A stretch of 64,000 nt of DNA from a virus. The notes below the pieces were generated by a model. The model searched no databases and was not told where the DNA came from. It worked only from the letters and a program-made list of their open reading frames with translations. The position numbers and the translations under genes are program-made. The stretch lies in UHGV virus genome UHGV-1351408. One strand, written 5' to 3'. Positions 2,245 to 48,312 of this stretch are shown piece by piece. The first letter of the stretch is position 1. Every line of letters begins with the position of its first letter.

Positions 2245-4198
2245 TTAATACAGGTGGAATCGTTGAGCTTTGACGCTGTTCTTCAGTATAGACTTCACCA
2301 GTCTCACGGTCAAACACTTCATCTTCATAATGAGGTAGAGAGTCATCATAATGGTCTTCAGCTTCACCAATACCAAACTGTTGACGAATATTTTCTGCTG
2401 CACCATCAATGTCAACACCACATCCAGAAGCTTTGATAAGACGTCCTGTGTCTGGATTGTACCAAGTATGACCAGCAATACCTGTTGACTTACCATGACG
2501 ACGACACTTAGTTAACTTGATTTTTGTCAAGTTTTTCTTAACAGGGTCTGGGTCAACCTTGTTACGCATTAACAGAATATTGTTCATGGAAATCTGGAAA
2601 TACGCACCAGAACCTTTAATGTCCTCTTCAGAGATATCTCCACCTTCAGAGTTAGCTTTCTGACCACCTGCACTCTTACGAACGTGACAGACGTTTACCT
2701 GTGCATACTGGTAGCGTTTGCAGCGACGTAATAGCTCAGACAAAACTTCCTCTTCATCTGTATCTGAACGTGACAGAGCCAACGTAATAGGGTCAAGAAT
2801 GATAATCTTACAGTCTAAACTATTAACAAGATAGTCAACAAACTCCAGCAGGTTATCTTGGTCAATTGCCCCTTGATGGTCAACGATATGGATGCGACGA
2901 CCTTTTGAAAGCTCGGCGTGTGCTCCCTTTAATTCATCCCAATCTCGTTCATCATAGGGAATCTCAGAAATCTGCTTGCTTAGGTGGATTGCACAGAGCA
3001 TCTCCATCAACTCTTCATAGGTATCTTCTACAGGAATTACACCGATATTATAATCAGTTTCTTTCCAAGCTGAATAAATCATCTCACGAGTGTAAGCTGA
3101 TTTACCTACTGAAGATGGGGCTGCAATAGTCGTAATCTCACCTAAACCGTAACCACCATAAGTCAGTCTGTTCAAATCCCCGAAAGATTCTGGGAAAGGA
3201 ATCAATGGAATCTGACCACGATTCTTCATTGCCTCAAAACCATCTGCAAAGTTCTTAATACCAGCAGGACAGTAACGAGGTGCATTGTAGATACGCTGCT
3301 TAAATCCTTCCAGAACTGTATCTTTTTCTTTATAGAACTTTGTCCACCACTCGTTAAGGTCTTTTACACCCTCTGGGTACTGGAATAAACGAACCTTCTC
3401 AATAGGTAGGATACCAGCAGCCTCTTTGGTAGCTTTAGCACCTGCTTCATCGTTATCAAAGCACAAGTAAATCTCATCAAATGATGTGATGTACTGATAG
3501 TTGTCTTTGATAGACTTAATGTTTGCACCTGATGGGACAGATACGTGACAGTAATTCTTACGACGAGACTTGTCCTTAATCGCAAGAGAAGTCATATAGA
3601 TTGCTGTCGCACATTCCATCTCACCTTCCCAGATGAATAGACGGTTACCACCTTCTGGAGCAATCCATGAACCGAACATTGCCAGTTCACCTTTAATGTC
3701 TCCAACACCACCTGAAAAGTCTTTTAACTTACCACGTAGGTGTTCTTTTGGATGGTCTTCTGGGTAACGGTGACGAACACGGTAGCCAACATGTTCTAGC
3801 TTACCATCTTCATTACGTTTGTAAGTCGGATAGAAATGTGCATCAATTTCACCGTCACTGTCAATGTCAACCTTGATACCTAGACGTTCAAGAACTTTTG
3901 CAGGAATCTTCCTGTCTTTCAAGTCCATTGCTTCTAGGTTTTCTTTTACATCGTCTAAATCCATTCCACGGAAAGTACGGTTTTTGTTATCTGAACCAGT
4001 AGAATAAGTGCTCACGATTTGTCCTTTATCAAAATCCCACTCTGGGAAACCTTTGTTACAGCTAAAGCAAGTCATCGAATAAGAATCATCGTCATGATGA
4101 TAGATTGAACCAGCATCTGATGAACCACAACGTGGACATGCACAATGACCAATAAACTGACCAGCCTCTTTCAATTTACGACCTTTAGACATTAGCAC
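2207..4198 (-). CDS. bifunctional DNA primase-helicase (T7 gp4-like)
   Basis: 663 aa; N-terminal Cys4 zinc ribbon (CPRCGSSD...CFSCNKG); C-terminal DnaB-type Walker A (APSSVGKSAY). Confidence 0.85.
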   Translation of the reverse strand: MLMSKGRKLKEAGQFIGHCACPRCGSSDAGSIYHHDDDSYSMTCFSCNKGFPEWDFDKGQIVSTYSTGSDNKNRTFRGMDLDDVKENLEAMDLKDRKIPAKVLERLGIKVDIDSDGEIDAHFYPTYKRNEDGKLEHVGYRVRHRYPEDHPKEHLRGKLKDFSGGVGDIKGELAMFGSWIAPEGGNRLFIWEGEMECATAIYMTSLAIKDKSRRKNYCHVSVPSGANIKSIKDNYQYITSFDEIYLCFDNDEAGAKATKEAAGILPIEKVRLFQYPEGVKDLNEWWTKFYKEKDTVLEGFKQRIYNAPRYCPAGIKNFADGFEAMKNRGQIPLIPFPESFGDLNRLTYGGYGLGEITTIAAPSSVGKSAYTREMIYSAWKETDYNIGVIPVEDTYEELMEMLCAIHLSKQISEIPYDERDWDELKGAHAELSKGRRIHIVDHQGAIDQDNLLEFVDYLVNSLDCKIIILDPITLALSRSDTDEEEVLSELLRRCKRYQYAQVNVCHVRKSAGGQKANSEGGDISEEDIKGSGAYFQISMNNILLMRNKVDPDPVKKNLTKIKLTKCRRHGKSTGIAGHTWYNPDTGRLIKASGCGVDIDGAAENIRQQFGIGEAEDHYDDSLPHYEDEVFDRETGEVYTEEQRQSSTIPPVLSEDADDCPFETE

Positions 4199-4393: not shown

Positions 4394-5137
4394 TTAAATC
4401 TTCAGGATAGCTCTTAGCTTGCTCTCAAGGTCTGCAAGAGTACCATTATTATGAATAATGTCACGCTCATATTTTGTAGAAATACCATTTTCTGAAACAT
4501 GTGATGAAACTTTGTCCACATTGTCTCTTTTTACTTCAATGGTTTGGTGTGCAAATCTACTCAGCCACTCAGCTTCAGAGTCAAATCTTAAATCACTGAT
4601 TAAAACAACACCTTCTTGATTTCTAAGTGAGCAAACATCAAAGAAATTTACCATTCGTTTTTCGAGGTCTTTAGCCCAGAACTTGTCACCCAGAACTTTA
4701 CGGATAACTTCAGTGCCCCAAATCTGTTGAATTTGTCTTGATGAGAATTTATACTTTTTACTAAATCCCAGACGTGTTAATAGAGTCGGTTTAGCAACCT
4801 TCTTCAGTTCCATAATTAATCGTCCGGTTAACTCTGACATGAGTTTGAAGTCCGTATGATAACGTTCACCTCTGAAGGTAAACTCCATAGCTTCTGTGAC
4901 CTTGAACATCAGTTCAGAGTATGATAAATCAAAAACCTGTGGAGTCTCTTTAGTTTCACCGTACAGGTCATTCCAAGTTAAGTCAAATATCCTTGATGCA
5001 GAGAGTTTAAGGTTGTCTGCATAGGCCATTACTGCAACATTGTAGCCATACTCATCTTCTAGGATATTCTTCACAATAGAACATGAGGTGTCTTTTCCAG
5101 AACGTGCCTTTCCAGTAAATGCGATAATATTACTCAT
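4394..5137 (-). CDS. deoxynucleoside monophosphate kinase (T4 gp1-like)
   Basis: N-terminal P-loop IIAFTGKARSGKDT matches the dNMP kinase signature RSGKDT. Confidence 0.6.
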   Translation of the reverse strand: MSNIIAFTGKARSGKDTSCSIVKNILEDEYGYNVAVMAYADNLKLSASRIFDLTWNDLYGETKETPQVFDLSYSELMFKVTEAMEFTFRGERYHTDFKLMSELTGRLIMELKKVAKPTLLTRLGFSKKYKFSSRQIQQIWGTEVIRKVLGDKFWAKDLEKRMVNFFDVCSLRNQEGVVLISDLRFDSEAEWLSRFAHQTIEVKRDNVDKVSSHVSENGISTKYERDIIHNNGTLADLESKLRAILKI

Positions 5138-5198: not shown

Positions 5199-6011
5199 TT
5201 AGTGAAGTTGTTCACTAGTAATTTGTGAGTGCTCTTTTTCAGCCATAGCTGAGACTTGCTTCACAAAATCGTCACCAAAGTGAATGCGAAGCTTCTCTTC
5301 AATGATTGAAGCACCAATGTTTACCAAAACATCATTGATTGCTTGCATACTGACACCACCAGTCATCTCCTCAACGAACTCAATGGTTACACCCAACATC
5401 TGAGCAAGTTGGATTAGTGCAACGATATTCATCATTGTAGAAATAGCTGGAATCATCAGAGCGACCTTCACCTGTAGTGGTTCTACATCAGCTACAGAAT
5501 CATCTTTCACAGCTTCTGCTAAAGACTCTTTAGTTTGCTGGATAATCTCTCTGATTCGTGGGGTTAACTCTTCTACACCCCAATCAAACTTTTCATATCG
5601 TGAAAGCTTCTCTTCCATGCGCTTCTCAAGAGCAGCCATAACAGCACTTGTTGATGCAATGATTGTATCAATAAGGGAATCATTATCCTGAGTCAGCAAC
5701 AGTTCTTTATTTTCGTCTGACATCCTGATATAGTCATTCTTTTGCATTTCATAAAAAATGAACTCAGCAAGTGCGTCAACACCAACAGCGATAGATGCCA
5801 GAGCTAGTGGAGTGTCTGTCAACATCATGTTAACCTGTTCTGCAAAAGCACCGTTATCAGACTTGTCTTTAGGCAAGTTATAGCTTGCAGGCATAAACCG
5901 TTCTGTGTAGTTGTTTCCACGAAGAATCATAGCCATGCTTTCTACGGCATTGATTAAGAATGCTTCGTCAATACCTTTTTCTTTAAGCATTTGGTCTACA
6001 GTAGTATTCAT
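5199..6011 (-). CDS. hypothetical protein
   Basis: 270-aa ORF. Confidence 0.5.
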   Translation of the reverse strand: MNTTVDQMLKEKGIDEAFLINAVESMAMILRGNNYTERFMPASYNLPKDKSDNGAFAEQVNMMLTDTPLALASIAVGVDALAEFIFYEMQKNDYIRMSDENKELLLTQDNDSLIDTIIASTSAVMAALEKRMEEKLSRYEKFDWGVEELTPRIREIIQQTKESLAEAVKDDSVADVEPLQVKVALMIPAISTMMNIVALIQLAQMLGVTIEFVEEMTGGVSMQAINDVLVNIGASIIEEKLRIHFGDDFVKQVSAMAEKEHSQITSEQLH

Positions 6012-10852: not shown

Positions 10853-11956
10853 ATGACAATACTGTACAAACAAAATAAAGACGGCTCTTTTAACGTCTGG
10901 TCGTGTGTTGCTGTAGGTGACAAAGTTATTACAACCTACGGTAAAGAAAATGGCAAGATGATGTTTGAAGAGTATACAGCAGAACCTAAAAACATCGGTA
11001 AAAAGAATGAGCGTAACGCTGAACAGCAAGCTCTCTTTGAAGTTGCTGCAAAGTATAAAAAGCAAGTTGACCGTAAAGGTTATGCTTACACAAAAGAGTC
11101 TGCACAGAATACTGAGAAGGTAGGTGTACAGCTTGCTCATGATGCTGCAAAGGTTAGCCATGCAAAGTATCTGAAGTTCCCTGCTGATGCTCAACCGAAA
11201 CTTGATGGTGTCCGTTGTAGGATTTCAAGGCACTTGAGTATTGGCAGTGTATTTACAGCATATTCTCGTGAGAATACTGTTTACAAAATCCCTACTGAAC
11301 TAATACCTGACATTATGGCAATGTTAAGGCTCCACAAAGATGTTGATGAATTTGATGGAGAGATTTATGCTCATGGGTGGGACTTAGAAGATATCGTCTC
11401 CATGATTAAAAATGAAGATAATCCTGACAGACACTTGCTCAAGTTTTACTGGTACGATATCTGTGACAGTACTAAGACGTGGCCTGAGCGTAGAGATATT
11501 ATTGAGACTTCACCATTGAATGACTTCAGAGACGGCTGTAAAGTTGTACCTGTTAAGTCTCGTCGTGTGAACTCTTGGGAAGAGTTTGATGAAGCTCATG
11601 ATAAGTGGGTTGAAGCTAAGTTTGAAGGTGCAATGTACCGTTCAATCTCTGAAGAATCTTTCTACGAGTGTTGTCACCGTTCATACTTCTTGATTAAACA
11701 CAAGAAGATGCACACTGAAGAGTTTAAAGTGACTGGTGTCAAGACCGATAAACGTGGTCATGGCAAGTTCGTTGTAGAGACTCTTCCTAACGTCTTTGTA
11801 GATGTCTCATGGAAGACTACTCATGAGAAGAAACAGTATCTTGCTGAGCATCCTGAAGAGTTTATCGGGAAACCTTTAACGGTACAGTTCCAGAAGATGA
11901 CTCGTAAGGGTTCTTTACAGTTCCCTGTCGGACTAGTTATTAGGGATTATGAATAA
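10853..11956 (+). CDS. ATP-dependent DNA ligase
   Basis: Adenylation motif I AQPKLDGVRC (KxDG); start placed at MTILYK after GAGGA RBS. Confidence 0.8.
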   Translation: MTILYKQNKDGSFNVWSCVAVGDKVITTYGKENGKMMFEEYTAEPKNIGKKNERNAEQQALFEVAAKYKKQVDRKGYAYTKESAQNTEKVGVQLAHDAAKVSHAKYLKFPADAQPKLDGVRCRISRHLSIGSVFTAYSRENTVYKIPTELIPDIMAMLRLHKDVDEFDGEIYAHGWDLEDIVSMIKNEDNPDRHLLKFYWYDICDSTKTWPERRDIIETSPLNDFRDGCKVVPVKSRRVNSWEEFDEAHDKWVEAKFEGAMYRSISEESFYECCHRSYFLIKHKKMHTEEFKVTGVKTDKRGHGKFVVETLPNVFVDVSWKTTHEKKQYLAEHPEEFIGKPLTVQFQKMTRKGSLQFPVGLVIRDYE

Positions 11957-41284: not shown

Positions 41285-41360
41285 TGGAGAATCCGAAGGG
41301 ACTCGAACCCTTATAAACCTGTTTTGCAGACAGGCACATAGCCATTTCTGTCACGGATTC
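41285..41360 (-). tRNA. tRNA-Cys(GCA)
   Basis: Acceptor GAATCCG/CGGATTC, T-loop TTCGAGT, anticodon loop CTGCAAA, U73, CCA encoded. Confidence 0.7.
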
Positions 41361-41364
41361 AAAT

Positions 41365-41457
41365 TGGAGGAAGATACCAGACTTGAACTGGTACACCGAT
41401 TTCTCAGTTACTGGCAGTTTAGCAAACTGCTCCCTTACCTTTTAGGGTTAATCTTCC
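41365..41457 (-). tRNA. tRNA-Ser(GCT), long variable arm
   Basis: 93 nt; anticodon stem GCAGT/ACTGC, loop TTGCTAA. Confidence 0.6.
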
Positions 41458-41458
41458 A

Positions 41459-42193
41459 TTATTTCTGTAATGCGTTCTTCATTTCTGGTGTTGCAATAGT
41501 GTCAATCACACCAGTTTTACAAGCATCGTCAAACCAGTCTGGTAAGATACCTGCTAAGAACCCATTGATATTCGTTTTAAGGTACTCTGCAATAAGGGCA
41601 GCTTCTTCTTCAATCATCTGCACAACTTCATCTGCATAAGCTGTAATCTTCGAAATACCTTCATTAATCTTACTAACAGCTTGGTTAGCTAAATCAGAAA
41701 TAGTATCAAGACCTTTGTCAATAGCATCTTGTAAGTCACTTAATACATCATTAACACCGTCTAGTGCACTGTTAATCATATCAATAGCTTTTTGACCATA
41801 CTCTGTAGCAACACCCATAATACCACTAAATGGTGTACAACCGACTTGTTCACCTGCTGCACCCATAACATTAGAATAACCTTTTGCTACCTGCATACGT
41901 GATGAAAACTCATCAATGGACTTTTGACCGTAATCCGTCAGCGTTTTGGTAGTTGATGTAGTACTTGTCAGACTCGTTGTAAAGCTGTTAAGCAGAACTG
42001 TTGTAAGTCCAGCAGCAACAAGTTTATCCTTTATTGTAGGGTCTGTTACAGAGCTAATAGAGCTTACAAGTGATGTAGAGGCAGCTACGGTTCCACCGAG
42101 AACTGCTGCACCAGTAATAAGGGGATTAGAAAACCCTCTACCGGTTTTTAAGAGATTAAAAATCTCCTTACCTTGTTCTGTCATCTCTTTCAT
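41459..42193 (-). CDS. hypothetical Ser/Thr-rich protein inside the tRNA array
   Basis: ORF 41459-42256; start moved to MKEMTEQ (AAAGGTG RBS) to avoid tRNA-Phe. Confidence 0.45.
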   Translation of the reverse strand: MKEMTEQGKEIFNLLKTGRGFSNPLITGAAVLGGTVAASTSLVSSISSVTDPTIKDKLVAAGLTTVLLNSFTTSLTSTTSTTKTLTDYGQKSIDEFSSRMQVAKGYSNVMGAAGEQVGCTPFSGIMGVATEYGQKAIDMINSALDGVNDVLSDLQDAIDKGLDTISDLANQAVSKINEGISKITAYADEVVQMIEEEAALIAEYLKTNINGFLAGILPDWFDDACKTGVIDTIATPEMKNALQK

Positions 42194-42209
42194 TAAGCAC
42201 CTTTGAAAT

Positions 42210-42286
42210 TGGTAGTCCAGTGGGATTTGAACCCTCTTCTCATGTTTTTCAGACACGCGCTTTAACCATATAAGCTACTTGGACTA
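42210..42286 (-). tRNA. tRNA-Phe(GAA)
   Basis: Acceptor TAGTCCA/TGGACTA, anticodon loop CTGAAAA. Confidence 0.6.
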
Positions 42287-42291
42287 TAAAT

Positions 42292-42367
42292 TGGGGTGAC
42301 CTACGGGATTTGAACCCGTATAGACCATGTTCACAGCATGGGTCATTACCATTTATGATAAGGCCAC
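42292..42367 (-). tRNA. tRNA-His(GTG)
   Basis: Anticodon loop CTGTGAA; extra 5' G and C73. Confidence 0.7.
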
Positions 42368-42398
42368 ATTTAAGGACTCTCGTAAGAACCCTTAGAAG

Positions 42399-42474
42399 TG
42401 GCAGCGGCATAAGGATTTGAACCTTAATAAGACAGCTTCAGAGACTGCTGCATTGCCAGTTATGCTATACCGCT
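42399..42474 (-). tRNA. tRNA-Gln(CTG)
   Basis: Loop CTCTGAA, G73. Confidence 0.5.
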
Positions 42475-42479
42475 AAATT

Positions 42480-42558
42480 TGGTACTCCATATCGGATTCG
42501 AACCGATACATAACACAGATTTTAAGTCTGGCCTCTCTGCCAATTGGAGTAATGGAGC
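42480..42558 (-). tRNA. tRNA with Leu anticodon TAA, short variable arm
   Basis: 79 nt; loop CTTAAAA; Leu-type D-loop AATTGGCAGAG; A73. Confidence 0.5.
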
Positions 42559-42560
42559 AT

Positions 42561-42636
42561 TGGCGGGGGATGTTGGAATTGAACCAACTTCTTCGATTTC
42601 AAAGACCGAGGTTTTAACCTTGTAAACTAATCCCCT
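42561..42636 (-). tRNA. tRNA-Gln(TTG)
   Basis: Anticodon stem TCGGT/ATCGA, loop CTTTGAA, G73. Confidence 0.55.
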
Positions 42637-42644
42637 TTAAATCT

Positions 42645-43202
42645 TTACTTTCTTAGTGGATGAATAAAGAATGCCAACATAACTCTTTCCCTTGAGAATG
42701 CTCTTTCTTCTGGGACAACACTTTTTAGCTTCCACCCAATATAAATTCTCCAGTAAAACTGTTTACCAAAGACTTTAATTGATGGGATAAAAGCGAATAA
42801 TCCCCAAGCATTGCTGTTCCACATTAGGAGATAACCTGTCTGATTATCTTCAGGGTTAGAACTTACGTTGATATTACCTTTCCACTTAGTAACATCTTTT
42901 ACATCTCTTCCTAACACATGGTAAGAGAAGTTATAAGCTTTGTTTCTCCAGAGCCAACCAACTCTCTGCATATAGACACCAAGCTTACCAATCTTTCTAA
43001 TCTTAGCCCATCGTTCGATATGACCTTCATCACCATCAATTGGGTTGTCATAAGTTTCCATCCATCTGAACCCGAAAGGTAAGTGTCCTTTCTTCTCACT
43101 GTAGAATGGAACTACAAAAGGTGCTAAGATAACTGCTAAGATTGCTGCAAATGGCTCTAATAAAGCTAAGAAAATCCATGAAGCATACTTCAAATATCTC
43201 AT
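42645..43202 (-). CDS. membrane protein inside the tRNA array
   Basis: 185 aa; N-terminal hydrophobic segment WIFLALLEPFAAILAVILAPFVVPF. Confidence 0.45.
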   Translation of the reverse strand: MRYLKYASWIFLALLEPFAAILAVILAPFVVPFYSEKKGHLPFGFRWMETYDNPIDGDEGHIERWAKIRKIGKLGVYMQRVGWLWRNKAYNFSYHVLGRDVKDVTKWKGNINVSSNPEDNQTGYLLMWNSNAWGLFAFIPSIKVFGKQFYWRIYIGWKLKSVVPEERAFSRERVMLAFFIHPLRK

Positions 43203-43441
43203 TGTCTAATCCTAGTAAGGAGGTAAACATTATTATCTGTTTCTGAGTTTTCTGGTAAAGCTGTCTCAAAATTGACGCTTTTAAATTGTCTCCCACCAAA
43301 GTAATGACCAATAAATTTTTGTACTTTTATTGGGTCACATTCCCAGCCGACTTTCAAGAAAATGTGGGTATCTATAGTGGGAACCCTTACAAACTCAATA
43401 CTATTGGAATTTTCATGTTCAACGACGATTAATGTTTGCAT
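43199..43441 (-). CDS. hypothetical protein
   Basis: 80 aa. Confidence 0.4.
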   Translation of the reverse strand: MQTLIVVEHENSNSIEFVRVPTIDTHIFLKVGWECDPIKVQKFIGHYFGGRQFKSVNFETALPENSETDNNVYLLTRIRQ

Positions 43442-43459
43442 AAATCTCTCTTATTTATC

Positions 43460-43535
43460 TGGCGCAGGATAAGGGACTTGAACCCCTATTAACAGCTTCG
43501 TAGACTGTTGCTCTATCCATTTGAACTAATCCTGC
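43460..43535 (-). tRNA. tRNA-Arg(ACG)
   Basis: Acceptor GCAGGAT/ATCCTGC, loop CTACGAA. Confidence 0.7.
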
Positions 43536-43650
43536 TTACCTACGAGAACACCATACAGTTTTTCACAAACTTTGCTTTTACGTCTGTTTAGATATGACGC
43601 TCTAAACTTTTTTTGCAATTGACTTATTACTCATAGTGTTCTCCTAAAAT

Positions 43651-43728
43651 TGGTGTTCCAAGACGGATTCGAACCGTCACTAGTACAAGGTTTGAGCTTG
43701 CATCCTCTGCCAATTGGGATACTGGAAC
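43651..43728 (-). tRNA. tRNA with Leu anticodon CAA, short variable arm
   Basis: 78 nt; loop CTCAAAC; D-loop AATTGGCAGAGG; A73. Confidence 0.5.
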
Positions 43729-43729
43729 A

Positions 43730-43804
43730 TGGTACTCACTAAAGGACTTGAACCTTTTTCTTCATCTTGTAAGGGTGATGTTTTACCATATAAACTAAGC
43801 GAGT
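43730..43804 (-). tRNA. tRNA-Val(TAC)
   Basis: Loop CTTACAA. Confidence 0.5.
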
Positions 43805-43900
43805 GTGAAAGAGGTCTGAAGTTGTGCCACTAACTCAACTCCGTGGAATTTGTTACGGTCTTCAGTTGACTCAAAGTGGTCTTTCACTTGACCTCTGAAT

Positions 43901-43976
43901 TGGTGCTCCCACAAGGATTCGAACCCTGATAAGTTGCTTACAAGGCAACCGTAATAGCCAATTATACGATAGGAGC
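43901..43976 (-). tRNA. tRNA-Thr(TGT)
   Basis: Anticodon stem GTTGC/GCAAC, loop CTTGTAA. Confidence 0.7.
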
Positions 43977-43983
43977 ATTAATT

Positions 43984-44058
43984 TGGAGCATCCAGAGGGA
44001 ATCGAACCCTCAACCTCAGTTTGGAAGACTGTAATTTTCCCGTTTAAACTATGGATGC
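43984..44058 (-). tRNA. tRNA-Gly(TCC)
   Basis: Acceptor GCATCCA/TGGATGC, loop CTTCCAA. Confidence 0.65.
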
Positions 44059-44064
44059 ACTAAT

Positions 44065-44140
44065 TGGTGGAGTCACTGAGAATTGAACTCAGTTCCCAAG
44101 TTTGCAAAACTCGAATTTTAACCATATAAACTATGACCCC
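44065..44140 (-). tRNA. tRNA-Ala(TGC)
   Basis: Loop TTTGCAA. Confidence 0.6.
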
Positions 44141-44145
44141 AATTT

Positions 44146-44221
44146 TGGTACAGGTGGAGGGAATTGAACCCATCGTCTTACTGATTAAGAGTCAGCCGCA
44201 TAACCATTTTGCTACACCTGC
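44146..44221 (-). tRNA. tRNA-Lys(CTT)
   Basis: Loop CTCTTAA. Confidence 0.55.
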
Positions 44222-44228
44222 ATTAATT

Positions 44229-44305
44229 TGGTACACCTAGAGAGATTCGAACTCACACTGAGCAGATTCTAAGTCTGCTGCCTCTACCAATTGGGCTATA
44301 GGTGC
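44229..44305 (-). tRNA. tRNA with Leu anticodon TAG, short variable arm
   Basis: 77 nt; anticodon stem GCAGA/TCTGC, loop CTTAGAA; D-loop AATTGGTAGAGG; A73. Confidence 0.55.
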
Positions 44306-44560
44306 ATTAAATCTTTTTAGAGAACTTCTAAGAACCTAAGCAACAAGGTTCCACAACAAGCTGTAATAACCTTAGAAGCCCTCTAAAAAGACCTAATTTG
44401 GTCTTTGCATAGTCTTGTTTAATCCGGTGACTAGAACCTTTGGAGAGCTTGATATTATCTCTTCTCCGTGACACCTACTAGGTGCTTTATCAGTGTGTAC
44501 GACAATACACGAGGGATAAACCGAAAATGCGAGCAAGCATGGACGGTGTAAATCTTATTA

Positions 44561-44650
44561 GGCGGTAAGTAAAGGAGTCGAACCCTCACCGTATCTCTAC
44601 AGTGGCAACAGTTTTCAAGACTGTTTGGCTGCCATTAGCCGCTACCTACC
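44561..44650 (-). tRNA. tRNA-Ser(TGA), long variable arm
   Basis: 90 nt; anticodon stem ACAGT/ACTGT, loop CTTGAAA; 3' CC encoded, terminal A not. Confidence 0.6.
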
Positions 44651-44663
44651 CCTAATAAGACTT

Positions 44664-44746
44664 TGGCATGGGACGGAGGAGTTGAACCCCTTTGAAACGG
44701 TTTTGGAGGCCGTTGCTCATGCCTTAGAGTCTTAACATCGTCCCAC
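44664..44746 (-). tRNA. tRNA-like element, anticodon unassigned (CCA/Trp possible)
   Basis: 83 nt with good acceptor (GTGGGAC/GTCCCAT) and T-arm, but D/anticodon region does not fold canonically. Confidence 0.3.
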
Positions 44747-44888
44747 ATTATAATTCGAAGCTTACCGTATTATCTCAACACTGTAAAGCCCCTTCTCAGA
44801 TTATTTACATGTTCTGGAAAACATGAGATACAGACCACCTCCCTACAGGAAGACCCGCTTAGGTCGTCTAAGTAATCTGCTAACTAAT

Positions 44889-44965
44889 TGGCACACCCTA
44901 CAGGATTCGAACCTGTAACTAACGATTTAGAAGACCGTTGCTCTATCCAATTGAACTAAGGGTGC
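44889..44965 (-). tRNA. tRNA-Arg(TCT)
   Basis: Anticodon stem ACGGT/ATCGT, loop CTTCTAA. Confidence 0.7.
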
Positions 44966-45302
44966 ATTAATCTTTAAAGACTCTCTTAGAAAGCCCTTAA
45001 AGATGCCCACCTTATTAATCATACCGTGGGCTAGTACGCCAAATTCTTTGATGAGGGATTGGAATACCTCACTGGTGTTTAGCCTATCAAGCTACTGCCA
45101 GAAAAACATTGTCGTTTGCATTTATTTTAAATTTGCAAAATAGACGCTACGCAACGAAAACTATTCAGAATATGTACAACAAATTTCCCCACATTGTGTT
45201 ACGTCTAACGCTCATGTATTGGTGTTTGAATTATACATATTATGAATTATTTTTAGTTACTATAAAGTAGTCACATCTTAATGTCAACAACTTTATTGAA
45301 AT

Positions 45303-45378
45303 TGGTACTGGTAGGTGGAATCGAACCACCGATGTTCCCTTATCAGGGGAGTGTTATAACCTTCTTAACTATACCAGC
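45303..45378 (-). tRNA. tRNA-Ile(GAT)
   Basis: Loop CTGATAA. Confidence 0.6.
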
Positions 45379-45379
45379 T

Positions 45380-45456
45380 TGGAGGTTCAGATGGGAATCG
45401 AACCCACATTCATAGGGCTTATGAAACCCCTGCATTACCTTATCTGCGACTGAACC
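45380..45456 (-). tRNA. tRNA-Met(CAT)
   Basis: Loop TTCATAA; GGG/CCC run in anticodon stem. Confidence 0.55.
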
Positions 45457-45534
45457 ATAATAAGTACCCTAGTTAGAGAAACTGTTGAGTGGGTGTTTCC
45501 AGCCGCGCAGGTGTTTCTCAGTTAAGGGTGAATT

Positions 45535-45610
45535 TGGTAGAAGTGGAGGGATTCGAACCCATCGCCTGTCAGATTAAAAGTCTGCCGCATCACCATTCTG
45601 CTACACTTCC
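45535..45610 (-). tRNA. tRNA-Lys(TTT)
   Basis: Loop CTTTTAA. Confidence 0.6.
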
Positions 45611-45814
45611 ATTAAATTATCTTTGTAGATAAGCTACCCAGACTTGCTTAAGGTCTGTAGCGATGTGCCTTTTTGGGTTTAAATCTAGAATTTACCCTTT
45701 CACCCTTTGTGGTCGCATACTCACAGGTAAGCTTAATAACTTATCTACAAAGATAATTACCAGACCGTTGTTTATCATCTTAAGTGCTACCATTACACCA
45801 ACTCGACATCTGCC

Positions 45815-45838
45815 GAGTGAAGGAATCGAACCTTCGCC
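45815..45838 (-). other. isolated tRNA T-arm-like module (GAAGG-TTCGATT-CCTTC) without an acceptor stem
   Basis: Canonical T-arm, but no 5' partner for the would-be acceptor within 100 nt; lies inside a conserved-box spacer element. Confidence 0.35.
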
Positions 45839-46068
45839 TTTTCTTTACCGGAGAAATAGATTGTTTAAGTTTTGCTGTAAACGGTCTTCTGTAAATTTGT
45901 TGAGCCAGACCAAGTTTTAAATTTTTTCAAAATTAAATTGGCTTGAAAATATCATACGTACTTGCTGAATTTGGTCTTCTGCTCCTTTAAAGAATACTCG
46001 TAAGAACTCTTTAAGGGAGGGGCTAAATAGCCCTCTCAAAACATCATTTTGAAATACTTATTATAATT

Positions 46069-46145
46069 TGGCGGCTACGATGAGACTTGAACTCACATCA
46101 TCTCCCGTGACAGGGGAGTATTTTCTCCAGTTAAACTACATAGCC
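46069..46145 (-). tRNA. tRNA-Asp(GTC)
   Basis: Anticodon stem CTCCC/GGGAG, loop CTGTCAC. Confidence 0.7.
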
Positions 46146-46150
46146 TCTAT

Positions 46151-46238
46151 TGGTGTGCCGTGTAGGAGTCGAACCTACCGAGTCTCAATGACAAGGGATT
46201 TACAGTCCCCACCGCTACCATCTACGGGATAACGACAC
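46151..46238 (-). tRNA. tRNA-Tyr(GTA), long variable arm
   Basis: 88 nt; loop CTGTAAA. Confidence 0.7.
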
Positions 46239-46247
46239 ATTTTAATT

Positions 46248-46324
46248 TGGCGGTTAGTCAGGGATTCGAACCCTGTGCCATTCGCTTAACAGGCGACCGC
46301 ACATACCTTATGTGCTTCCTAACC
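46248..46324 (-). tRNA. tRNA-Asn(GTT)
   Basis: Loop CTGTTAA. Confidence 0.6.
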
Positions 46325-46400
46325 TTAATACATTACCAGACCGTGTTTTTCTTTTATCCGCAAAAAGTAGTTTGTTGCTGAATACGGTCTTCTGTAAAAT

Positions 46401-46477
46401 TGGAGGCGGGTGCAGGAGTCGAACCTGCCGATACCATGCTAATGAGACATGTGAGACGCCCTTTCTCTATACCCGCA
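46401..46477 (-). tRNA. tRNA with CAT anticodon (Met or Ile2)
   Basis: Loop CTCATTA; 1-72 mismatch. Confidence 0.45.
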
Positions 46478-46568
46478 ATTCTTAATGACCAGACCAAATC
46501 TCTTCTTTGTCCGATTTACCTTCAGATGAATAAGATTAAGTTTGCTGTAATTGGTCTTCTGTCAAAAC

Positions 46569-46646
46569 TGGCGTTCCAGAAGGGATTTGAACCCTCAGAT
46601 ATCCACTTTGAAAGAGTGGTGACTTTACCATTTTGTCTACTGGAAC
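46569..46646 (-). tRNA. tRNA-Glu(TTC)
   Basis: Anticodon stem CCACT/AGTGG, loop CTTTCAA. Confidence 0.7.
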
Positions 46647-46653
46647 ATTAATT

Positions 46654-46730
46654 TGGTCTCTGTTGGAGGACTTGAACCTCCGGCCTTACCGCCCCAAACG
46701 GAACGCTCTACCAAGCTGAGCTAAACAGAG
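46654..46730 (-). tRNA. tRNA-Pro(TGG)
   Basis: D-arm AGCTCAGCTTGGTAGAGC, loop TTTGGGG. Confidence 0.7.
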
Positions 46731-46896: not shown

Positions 46897-48312
46897 TTAC
46901 CAGATGTAACGGTCAAGCATTACTGCTTTGAGCATTACGCTGATTGGGTCAAACTTCTCACCACCAAGCAGAGCTTTTAAAGTGGCTGGAGAGAACCCTG
47001 ATACCATTGCTACACCATTATCCTTAACAGATACTTCGCAAGTACCATTACGGTTTGCTAAGTACCAGAATACTAGTTGTGGCATTTCGTATCCAGCTTT
47101 TTTGTACTTACTCTGAATTGCTTCAAAGTTTGTACGACCATTTGCACCATCAACCTGATTAAACTCCATATCAGAGAAGATAATAAGCTTACTTGGCATA
47201 TCTTTCTGAGTCAAGTTGTTTCTCTTACCTGTTTCAAGAATGCGGTCAAAAGCTGCTTGTAAGTTAGTTGAGCCATATTCAACGTGTCGCATCACCTGAC
47301 GATGACGGTTTCGTAAATCACCACTCAGTTCGATGAAGTGAGGGTTTGTTGAATAAACCATTAACTCATTCTTAAAGCAACCTGTATTGCGTTCTGCTAC
47401 ATACAAGGCAAGTGATACACCAATATCCAGAGCAGTAATGGAGCCAAAATTCACCCAAGACATTGAACTTGATACATCAGACATACACAAGATGTTTTCA
47501 CCTTCTGCCATCCAGTTTGGTAGTGCTTTCCACTGCTCATTAGCAACATCTGCATTACCATACTTGACAGATTTAATCACATCGTATGGGTAAACAGCAC
47601 CAGCGTTAATCTTAGTCTCACCTTTTGATAAGGACTCGATGTAAGCTTTGTAACGCTCTCCATCTTTACGGTTAAACAGTTTTTGGTAACGTGCAGCAGC
47701 AAGTGAAGGAATCTTACTGTAGTCAATCTTACCAAACTCATTAGCAGAGATTTTTTGCTCAACTGTATCAGATAGTGCAGACAACAGTGTGCGGTACTCT
47801 TTCTCACTCAAGTTGGCAAACTTGCAGAAACGTTTTACAAACTGCTTATGACGTGGTTTGACTCGTGGCAACCACTTAGCCGCCAAACCTGCTGTTGCAG
47901 GGTCTAGTAATGCTGCTTCTAAATGTTTGAAGGCATCTGTCTCGAAACGAGTACCTACGAAGATTTTGAAGTCATCAAAACGACCAAGTTCTGCAATCTT
48001 ATCCATAATGCGAAGAACCTGCGTAGACTCTAAAACTTTGTCTTCAATTGCTTGAAGCAAAACAGTTCTGAAGGCTTTACGCTCACCCATACCTTCTCGT
48101 ACATCTCGCATATGAAGCAAAATACGAACTGCAACATCAACATCCTCACGCAAAGCTTTGTAGAACAGGTCTGGTAAGATTTCTACGTTGCTACGGCTTG
48201 AACCAGCAGCTTTGTAAAAGTCTACAAGAGCAGACATTGATGAAGTATGGTTTACAGCACCATTTTCAGTTCGACCTGCATGAAGGTGCGCATGTTTAAA
48301 TAATTCGCTCAT
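46897..48312 (-). CDS. vWA-domain protein with MIDAS motif (possibly Ro60/TROVE-like)
   Basis: 471 aa; helical N-terminal part; C-terminal vWA features: DxSxS (CMSDVSSSMS), later STN and FSDME. Confidence 0.6.
   Translation of the reverse strand: MSELFKHAHLHAGRTENGAVNHTSSMSALVDFYKAAGSSRSNVEILPDLFYKALREDVDVAVRILLHMRDVREGMGERKAFRTVLLQAIEDKVLESTQVLRIMDKIAELGRFDDFKIFVGTRFETDAFKHLEAALLDPATAGLAAKWLPRVKPRHKQFVKRFCKFANLSEKEYRTLLSALSDTVEQKISANEFGKIDYSKIPSLAAARYQKLFNRKDGERYKAYIESLSKGETKINAGAVYPYDVIKSVKYGNADVANEQWKALPNWMAEGENILCMSDVSSSMSWVNFGSITALDIGVSLALYVAERNTGCFKNELMVYSTNPHFIELSGDLRNRHRQVMRHVEYGSTNLQAAFDRILETGKRNNLTQKDMPSKLIIFSDMEFNQVDGANGRTNFEAIQSKYKKAGYEMPQLVFWYLANRNGTCEVSVKDNGVAMVSGFSPATLKALLGGEKFDPISVMLKAVMLDRYIW

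Follow-up and report, generated by a model that had tools for sequence, protein, structure and literature searches.

Three leucine tRNA genes without the long variable arm

The 64,000-nucleotide (nt) stretch of the virus genome UHGV-1351408 analysed here (the window) contains three tRNA genes with leucine anticodons whose products have a variable loop of only 5–7 nt, in place of the long arm of bacterial tRNALeu. The three are probably functional type I (armless) leucine tRNAs that the host's leucyl-tRNA synthetase (LeuRS) would charge and that would decode leucine codons, the arm presumably being dispensable for this and hence lost. Armless tRNALeu is a widespread phage design, not an oddity of one array.

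42480–42558, minus strand: tRNA-Leu(UAA), 79 nt with encoded CCA (ARAGORN; Rfam tRNA model RF00005, 47.5 bits)
43651–43728, minus strand: tRNA-Leu(CAA), 78 nt with encoded CCA (ARAGORN; RF00005, 43.6 bits)
44229–44305, minus strand: tRNA-Leu(UAG), 77 nt with encoded CCA (ARAGORN; RF00005, 58.9 bits)

All three scores lie above the gathering score of RF00005 (29 bits), and all three matches span model positions 1–71. A sequence-only reading of the window had proposed leucine anticodons TAA, CAA, and TAG for these genes, with a length of 77–79 nt, a short variable region, a Leu-type D loop, and A73, and had left the choice between unusual class I leucine tRNAs and mis-assigned anticodons. ARAGORN returned identical anticodons, and the Rfam model gave the same coordinates and anticodons; the ARAGORN cloverleaves and our structural parse agreed on the variable loops, which are GUUAUGU (7 nt) in Leu(UAA), ACUAGU (6 nt) in Leu(CAA), and UCAGU (5 nt) in Leu(UAG). 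Run over the array, ARAGORN found neither a different anticodon nor a long arm, and because automated folding thus keeps the anticodons and shows no long arm, it is the class I alternative that holds. A mis-assigned anticodon or a hidden long arm was rejected, since ARAGORN, Rfam, and the structural parse were concordant and 5–7 nt are too few to form a stem-loop in any alternative fold.

The three tRNAs share one fold, with a 7-base-pair (bp) acceptor stem, a 3-bp D stem, and a 5-bp anticodon stem. The ARAGORN drawings and the parse show the D loop C13-AAUUGG(C/U)AG-A22 and the T loop UUCGAAU in each of them, and the parse confirms the Leu-type D loop and A73 in all three, together with A9, C12:G23, C13·A22, and A15/U48. 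Leu(UAA) and Leu(UAG) begin with G1·U72, and Leu(CAA) carries C38. With bacterial type II tRNALeu they share A73, the 3-bp D stem with unpaired 13·22, G18G19 after four loop bases, and A20a, but they lack the stem-loop arm of more than about 10 nt; a leucine anticodon combined with a variable loop of 4–7 nt makes all three type I. They are not suppressor or recoding tRNAs: the anticodons UAA, CAA, and UAG read leucine codons, and the body is Leu-like.

The Ser and Tyr tRNAs of the same array serve as internal controls and, as had been noted from the letters, keep their long arms.

41285–46730, minus strand: tRNA array, 26 tRNA genes including the three Leu genes (ARAGORN)
41365–41457, minus strand: tRNA-Ser(GCU), 93 nt, long arm kept (ARAGORN)
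44561–44650, minus strand: tRNA-Ser(UGA), 90 nt, long arm kept (ARAGORN)
46151–46238, minus strand: tRNA-Tyr(GUA), 88 nt, long arm kept (ARAGORN)

ARAGORN found no long-arm tRNA-Leu in the array or anywhere else in the window. By the same program, the array tRNAs cover 19 of the 20 amino acids, Trp being the one missing.

Leucine identity and predicted charging by the host enzyme

The identity elements reported for E. coli tRNALeu are A73, A15:U48, G18G19, A20a, G18:U55, G19:C56, and U54:A58, whereas anticodon and long arm are of no crucial importance, and arm-deleted variants are still active (PMC9976931); an equivalent recognition set for E. coli LeuRS, with A14 added, is given in the introduction of another study (PMC6614811). 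The structural parse located the full set in all three window tRNAs (A73, U8, A14, A15, G18, G19, A20a, U48, U54, U55, C56, and A58); for U8:A14 and A15:U48, the bases are present by sequence and the pairing is deduced from them. The D-loop sequence is the same as that of host leuW, with an identical 11-nt D loop (AAUUGGUAGA). Among 192 armless tRNALeu from phage and metagenome loci, A73 was found in all 192 and U48 in 189. For the orthologues in Shigella phage Sf14, the isotype models of tRNAscan-SE put Leu first, with 67.4, 49.1, and 60.2 bits (PMC12482277), and at least the CAA gene of Sf14 is 98.7% identical to that of the window. The Sf14 paper nowhere mentions the variable region; it gives differences from the host in the anticodon loop and ties them to possible nuclease resistance (PMC12482277). 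According to the mechanism we propose, the leucine tRNAs would be co-transcribed with the other array genes and then processed, the CCA end being already encoded, and host LeuRS would charge all three with leucine; the E. coli enzyme recognises A73 together with the geometry of the D/T elbow and hinge (U8:A14, A15:U48, placement of G18G19, and A20a) rather than the anticodon or the arm. Leucylation itself and the reason for the arm loss we infer from the structure, identity elements, conservation, covariation, distribution, and codon match described here.

These identity data also bear on whether the genes read leucine codons while carrying another amino acid, their class I body having been taken over by a different synthetase. 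A class I shape does lose a feature by which Leu is told apart from most other tRNAs, and the isotype scores of the Sf14 Leu(UAG) orthologue are close (Leu 67.4, Ile2 65.7, and Lys 63.4). However, Leu is the top isotype for all three Sf14 orthologues, the D arm is Leu-specific (a 3-bp stem and an AAUUGGYAGA loop identical to that of host leuW), and most synthetases of class I tRNAs use the anticodon, which here is that of leucine. AlaRS is excluded by the absence of G3:U70, and SerRS by the absence of both a long arm and G73. Because the three isoacceptors are kept 95–100% identical in about 250 genomes, the proteome-wide mistranslation that such charging would bring is implausible, and we regard it as very improbable.

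Indirect experimental support for charging by host LeuRS comes from another coliphage. An anticodon-swapped tRNALeu(CGA) derived from MF402939.1 made E. coli read TCG as leucine, as determined by liquid chromatography–tandem mass spectrometry, and cat and asd genes with TCG at their Leu positions were functional with it in E. coli (PMC13596443). MF402939.1 is the T5-like phage OSYSP, in which ARAGORN found only two tRNA-Leu genes in the 100 of 110.9 kb scanned, both 77 nt long, with A73 and a variable loop of 5 nt (GUUUU). Efficient leucylation of an armless coliphage tRNALeu in E. coli is thus very probably already on record. Like the phage studied here, OSYSP is a coliphage with armless tRNALeu bearing A73, A15/U48, and an encoded CCA, and the anticodon-swapped form inserts leucine; it differs in being a T5-like siphovirus, in its D loop (AAUUGGCAUA), and in a sequence that is about 65% identical to the window tRNAs.

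Other known systems were compared in the same way. The type I tRNALeu(CAA) of Streptomyces coelicolor has, like the phage tRNAs, a 5-nt variable loop, works with a bacterial-type LeuRS, and shares its cytoplasm with long-arm tRNALeu (PMC6614811). It differs in being chromosomal and a single isoacceptor, in having C48, and in that its LeuRS does not use A73 as an identity element; in the phage, A15:U48 and A73 are present, every Leu isoacceptor is armless, and the tRNAs must work with an enterobacterial LeuRS. Animal mitochondrial tRNALeu(UUR) is likewise type I, with an identity that lies mainly in A73 and A14 (PMC9976931), but it is organellar, with a loose structure, a dedicated LeuRS, and fewer D/T contacts, whereas the phage tRNAs keep the full elbow. 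Minimal E. coli tRNALeu substrates from which the arm was deleted are charged by LeuRS if A73 and the D/T contacts are kept (summarised in PMC9976931); these are laboratory constructs of reduced activity, whereas the phage genes are natural and conserved and have a re-fitted core.

Several observations weigh against the interpretation of the three genes as host-charged leucine tRNAs. E. coli LeuRS does not charge the type I tRNALeu(CAA) of S. coelicolor; it is stated to charge only type II tRNAs, its leucine-specific domain favouring a large variable loop (PMC6614811). Unlike the phage tRNAs, however, the S. coelicolor tRNA lacks the A15:U48 element, because its position 48 is C. The OSYSP parallel is qualified in that the engineered tRNA is tied to this phage by accession and the scan covered 100 of the 110.9 kb of OSYSP, and in that the OSYSP tRNAs have a type II-like core (G9 and G13), which belongs to a minor class and not to that of the window tRNAs. 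Within the window, the anticodon stem of Leu(UAA) has a single mismatch, C27·U43, at its top, and the T stem of Leu(UAG) has one as well, U50·U64. Leu(UAG) also differs from the host tRNA at position 37, with A in place of G: its anticodon loop is CUUAGAA, with A37 following G36, and that of host leuW is UUUAGGU, in which G37 is the m1G37 site. Furthermore, unconstrained free-energy folding recovered the cloverleaf for the TAG gene, whose minimum-free-energy fold is the cloverleaf, and mostly for the CAA gene, but not for the TAA gene, with z values of −0.6 to −2.0. Free-energy folding of the three leucine tRNAs never produced an extra arm. Because thermodynamic folding is weak here, the structural case rests on the covariance model and the comparative data.

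Conservation and covariation

By its sequence, the window is placed as a Felixounavirus, a Felix O1-like phage. The array region matches Felix O1-like myoviruses (genus Felixounavirus and relatives) of Escherichia, Salmonella, and Shigella at 94–97% identity across more than 94% of its extent; with the array of Escherichia phage pEP20 it shares 97% identity over 5.6 kb, and the genes there follow the same order. An origin from an E. coli host or prophage was rejected, as a blastn search with Leu(UAG) gave no match in 5,426 complete E. coli genomes.

The three Leu genes are 95–100% identical across about 250 Ounavirinae genomes (Leu(UAA), at least 99% identical in 216 phage records; Leu(CAA), at least 95% identical in 248 records). 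The diverged Erwinia phage phiEa104, of the genus Kolesnikvirus, likewise encodes three armless tRNALeu (caa, aag, and taa) with the same core as those of the window, so that the armless state is old within the subfamily Ounavirinae. In its Leu(CAA), the acceptor stem is fully re-paired (GUUCCAG/UUGGAAC in the window and GGCGUAA/UUACGCU in phiEa104), and there are double changes at 50:64 and 51:63 in the T stem and at 30:40 in the anticodon stem; these compensated stem changes are the hallmark of a functional tRNA. In a set of 145 unique armless tRNALeu, each stem pair was formed in 93–100% of the sequences, with up to six pair types per position, whereas 13:22 was never Watson–Crick and 15:48 was A:U in 143 of 145.

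In the phiEa104 record, the armless Leu gene at 4778–4854 is labelled ‘tRNA-Undet’, and ‘tRNA-OTHER’ labels occur in the arrays of related records; annotation pipelines appear to be misled in their isotype calls by the absence of the arm. Such labels (‘Undet’, ‘Pseudo’, or ‘OTHER’ for some orthologues), the tRNA remnants in the window array at 44660–44744 and 45818–45868, and the one stem mismatch in each of two of the three Leu tRNAs could be taken to mean that the genes are decaying or non-translational elements, such as pseudogenes, processing signals, or decoys. Against this, the covariance scores are well above threshold, the invariant tRNA positions are all intact, stem changes are compensated in diverged relatives, sequence conservation is near-perfect, and the three genes are the only Leu tRNAs of an array that otherwise covers 19 of 20 amino acids, and we give decay or a non-translational role hardly any credence.

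A re-fitted core and the origin of armless tRNALeu

Canonical type II tRNALeu (E. coli leuW, leuZ, and leuX, and those of T4 and T5) resemble the window tRNAs in anticodons, A73, the 3-bp D stem, A15:U48, and the T-loop elements; they differ in having variable arms of 13–15 nt against 5–7 nt in the window, and a core of G9, G12:C23, and R13 against A9, C12:G23, and C13. Their lengths by ARAGORN are 85 nt (leuW), 87 nt (leuZ), 85 nt (leuX), 87 nt (T4), and 85 nt (T5). When the core was compared in 393 unique parsed tRNALeu (250 long-arm and 143 armless), the long-arm tRNAs had G9 in 245 of 250, G12:C23 in 243, and a purine at 13 in 246, whereas among the armless ones A9 occurred in 99 of 143, C12:G23 in 104, and C13 in 113, with A22 unchanged. 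The window tRNAs depart from this type II core rule (G9, G12:C23, and purine 13), which is empirical and taken from the sample. They belong instead to the major armless core class (A9, C12:G23, C13·A22, U48, and A73), as defined in the present analysis by these core bases and by an armless-profile score above the long-arm-profile score.

With the variable region removed, the window tRNAs scored 67.5 against 28.8, 51.8 against 6.8, and 81.1 against 41.9 bits on the armless and long-arm profiles, respectively. They were thus 39–45 bits better on the armless profile, while the tRNALeu of E. coli, T4, and T5 showed the opposite. The profile columns that separated the two families most were 13, 23, 12, and 9, and the nearest neighbour was itself armless for 121 of the 143 armless tRNALeu. 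A minority of armless tRNALeu, for example the OSYSP genes and Leu(UAG) of phage SUSP1, keep the long-arm core; there are two core classes among the armless forms.

At a tequintavirus slot beside tRNA-Ala, T5 has an 85-nt long-arm tRNALeu(UAG) (11625–11709) and OSYSP a 77-nt armless one (3693–3769). This difference is a recent replacement or arm loss. Because T5 and OSYSP differ in type at the same slot, it points to repeated loss or gene replacement. A single origin of all armless tRNALeu was considered and is not established, given the two core classes and this slot.

In SUSP1, a relative of the window phage, Leu(UAG) (2925–3002) is not of the Felix type and resembles the OSYSP gene at 3693–3769, with a G9/G13 core, a GUUUG variable loop (GUUUU in OSYSP), and an identical T arm. 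This resemblance to a T5-like phage suggests an exchange of tRNA genes between unrelated phage families.

Armless tRNALeu in phages and cells

The armless form is not confined to this phage. A blastn search with Leu(UAG) gave matches to annotated tRNA-Leu in many unrelated phages. Annotation and ARAGORN together identified armless tRNALeu in the Cronobacter phage CR3, the mycobacteriophage Cali (three genes), the Streptomyces phage Jay2Jay, a crAss-like phage, the Pseudomonas phage 16Q, and the Lactobacillus phage Bromius, while the Enterococcus phage EFDG1 has one armless and one long-arm tRNALeu. The hosts of these phages belong to the Proteobacteria, Actinobacteria, Firmicutes, and Bacteroidota. 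The EFDG1 tRNA array also contains an ARAGORN transfer-messenger RNA call at 5301–5648, with the tag peptide AKNEELLAVA*.

A pattern scan of IMG/VR, built on the D, anticodon, and T loops of Leu tRNAs at short or long spacing, gave at least 120 short-spacing and at least 120 long-spacing loci. In a scan with the merged pattern, the short form accounted for 9 of the first 80 viral loci and, in 120 cellular genome loci, for 3 of 121 matches; because the viral and cellular samples were drawn in different ways, these proportions are only roughly comparable. A better estimate came from 110 viral loci that were sampled without reference to Leu, by means of a generic tRNA 3′ half, and yielded 570 tRNAs. 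Among these, 28 of 61 Leu tRNAs were armless (28 short and 33 long), whereas all 42 Ser and all 16 Tyr tRNAs were long; within arrays of at least five tRNAs at these loci, 27 Leu tRNAs were short and 27 long. The lengths of tRNALeu were cleanly bimodal, at 74–75 and 82–84 nt.

In cells, armless tRNALeu was found in Gordonia, Herbiconiux, and one more genome, all of high GC content. The chromosomal armless tRNALeu of the actinobacteria Gordonia and Herbiconiux have a D arm and core sequence as in Leu(UAG) of the window. A prophage origin of the cellular genes was rejected at the loci examined, where the flanking genes identified by Pfam were of ordinary chromosomal kinds (an oxidoreductase, a histidine kinase, a subtilase, and a glutamate synthase-like gene). 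This chromosomal setting agrees with the report on S. coelicolor.

Codon usage

Across the 59 open reading frames of at least 120 amino acids in the window, the leucine codons are TTA 26%, CTT 28%, TTG 14%, CTA 10%, CTG 15%, and CTC 7%. In E. coli, CTG makes up about half of the leucine codons. By the decoding we propose, the UAA anticodon would read UUA and UUG, CAA would read UUG, and UAG would read CUA plus other CUN codons; the AT-rich phage makes heavy use of these codons, far more so than E. coli, and the CUG-biased host is assumed to hold few matching tRNAs. The set of leucine anticodons fits the usual codon-supplement role of phage tRNAs.

Why the arm is missing from leucine tRNAs only

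SerRS requires the long arm of its tRNA, and bacterial TyrRS contacts it. The arm is probably absent from Leu alone because LeuRS is the only synthetase of long-arm tRNAs that does not need the arm, and the split between armless and armed tRNAs by isotype fits an arm that is kept only where the synthetase requires it. We propose that phage lineages would have lost the arm from tRNALeu and re-fitted the tertiary core (A9, C12:G23, and C13·A22), while the Ser and Tyr tRNAs kept theirs. An armless tRNALeu would, in addition, not be mistaken for tRNASer in a new host.

A different cause of the loss would be counter-defence, in which armless tRNALeu evades host or phage-induced toxins or nucleases that select long-arm tRNAs, so that leucine decoding is kept during infection while host tRNALeu is disabled. 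A preference for tRNAs with long variable arms has been reported for the abortive-infection toxin AbiEii and for MenT3, and MenT1 targets tRNALeu of M. tuberculosis, but no toxin is reported to act on tRNALeu of E. coli or Salmonella through the arm, and the preference of AbiEii rests on the gel size of modified tRNAs. Phage tRNAs are reported to evolve so as to avoid defence RNases (PMC10264068, PMC13596443), recoding based on a viral tRNALeu withstood phage co-evolution when the version based on a cellular tRNA did not (PMC13596443), and the anticodon loops differ from those of the host at C32, A37, and C38 (PMC12482277). Armless forms also make up about half of the tRNALeu in sampled phage arrays against 3 of 121 in cellular genomes, in the rough comparison given above. 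However, such effectors could still attack the Ser and Tyr tRNAs of these arrays, which have retained their arms; long-arm tRNALeu serves T4 and T5 well; the pattern is explained equally well by the simple loss of something dispensable; and nothing specific to enterobacteria speaks for evasion. We therefore consider counter-defence an unlikely cause of the arm loss, and its extension to a general phage strategy, with leucine tRNAs invisible to arm-directed effectors and a re-fitted core compensating across host phyla, similarly doubtful; the loss of an arm that LeuRS does not need is the explanation we prefer.

Other features of the array

The remnant at 44660–44744 (minus strand) resembles tRNA-Arg(tct) at 44889–44965, with 71% identity over 42 nt and a weak Rfam score of 23 bits, and that at 45818–45868 (minus strand) is a tRNA-Ile-like 3′ half (RF00005, 22 bits). 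The two remnants suggest gene turnover inside the array. The inter-tRNA spacers contain four copies of a 28-nt motif, TTGCTG(T/A)A..GGTCTTCTG (45872–45899, 45962–45989, 46375–46402, and 46542–46569), two of which have an upstream partner, ATTACCAGACCG, at 45756–45773 and 46332–46349; motif and partner could pair on the tRNA strand as CAGAAGACCG...CGGTCTGG. The motif may be a processing or termination element, and a search of Rfam gave no family matching it. Two long inverted repeats also adjoin tRNA genes, one in 44306–44397, whose 27-nt arms are 85% complementary and which on the tRNA strand lies just 5′ of Leu(UAG), and the other in 45615–45758 (22-nt arms, 95%, 100-nt loop) just 5′ of tRNA-Lys(ttt).

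Proteins encoded in or beside the array have only domains of unknown function (DUF7217, DUF7338, and DUF2828/DUF7788). Directly upstream of the array lies the gene for a 471-amino-acid protein with DUF2828 and DUF7788 (46897–48312, minus strand); in Jay2Jay, an annotated Ro-like RNA-binding protein adjoins the tRNA array. A link of the 471-amino-acid protein to tRNA or RNA handling is a guess.

Implications

The type II form is found in almost all bacterial tRNALeu (PMC6614811), and textbooks and recent papers treat bacterial tRNALeu as class II and E. coli LeuRS as a class II-only enzyme. Type I tRNALeu was already known from animal mitochondria and S. coelicolor, but its generality in phages appears under-reported: our literature search found no description of armless phage tRNALeu, although subscription journals were mostly outside its reach and an earlier mention is possible. 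Because these genes are already annotated as tRNA-Leu in the GenBank records of many relatives, the new point lies in their structural class and in how general it is, rather than in the genes themselves.

The missing arm would explain the ‘Undet’, ‘Pseudo’, and ‘OTHER’ labels sometimes given to such genes, and it raises the testable question of why phages, and few bacteria, drop the arm. Armless phage tRNALeu also offer a naturally occurring range of leucine tRNA scaffolds that are compact and portable; one already serves genetic-code engineering. Whole groups of coliphages have only armless tRNALeu, namely the Felix O1-like phages (hundreds of genomes), the CR3-like phages, and some T5-like phages. 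Because about half of the sampled phage tRNALeu are armless, the LeuRS enzymes of several bacterial phyla would, by implication, accept armless substrates in vivo, and the rules of leucine identity are refined by the armless tRNALeu of phages.

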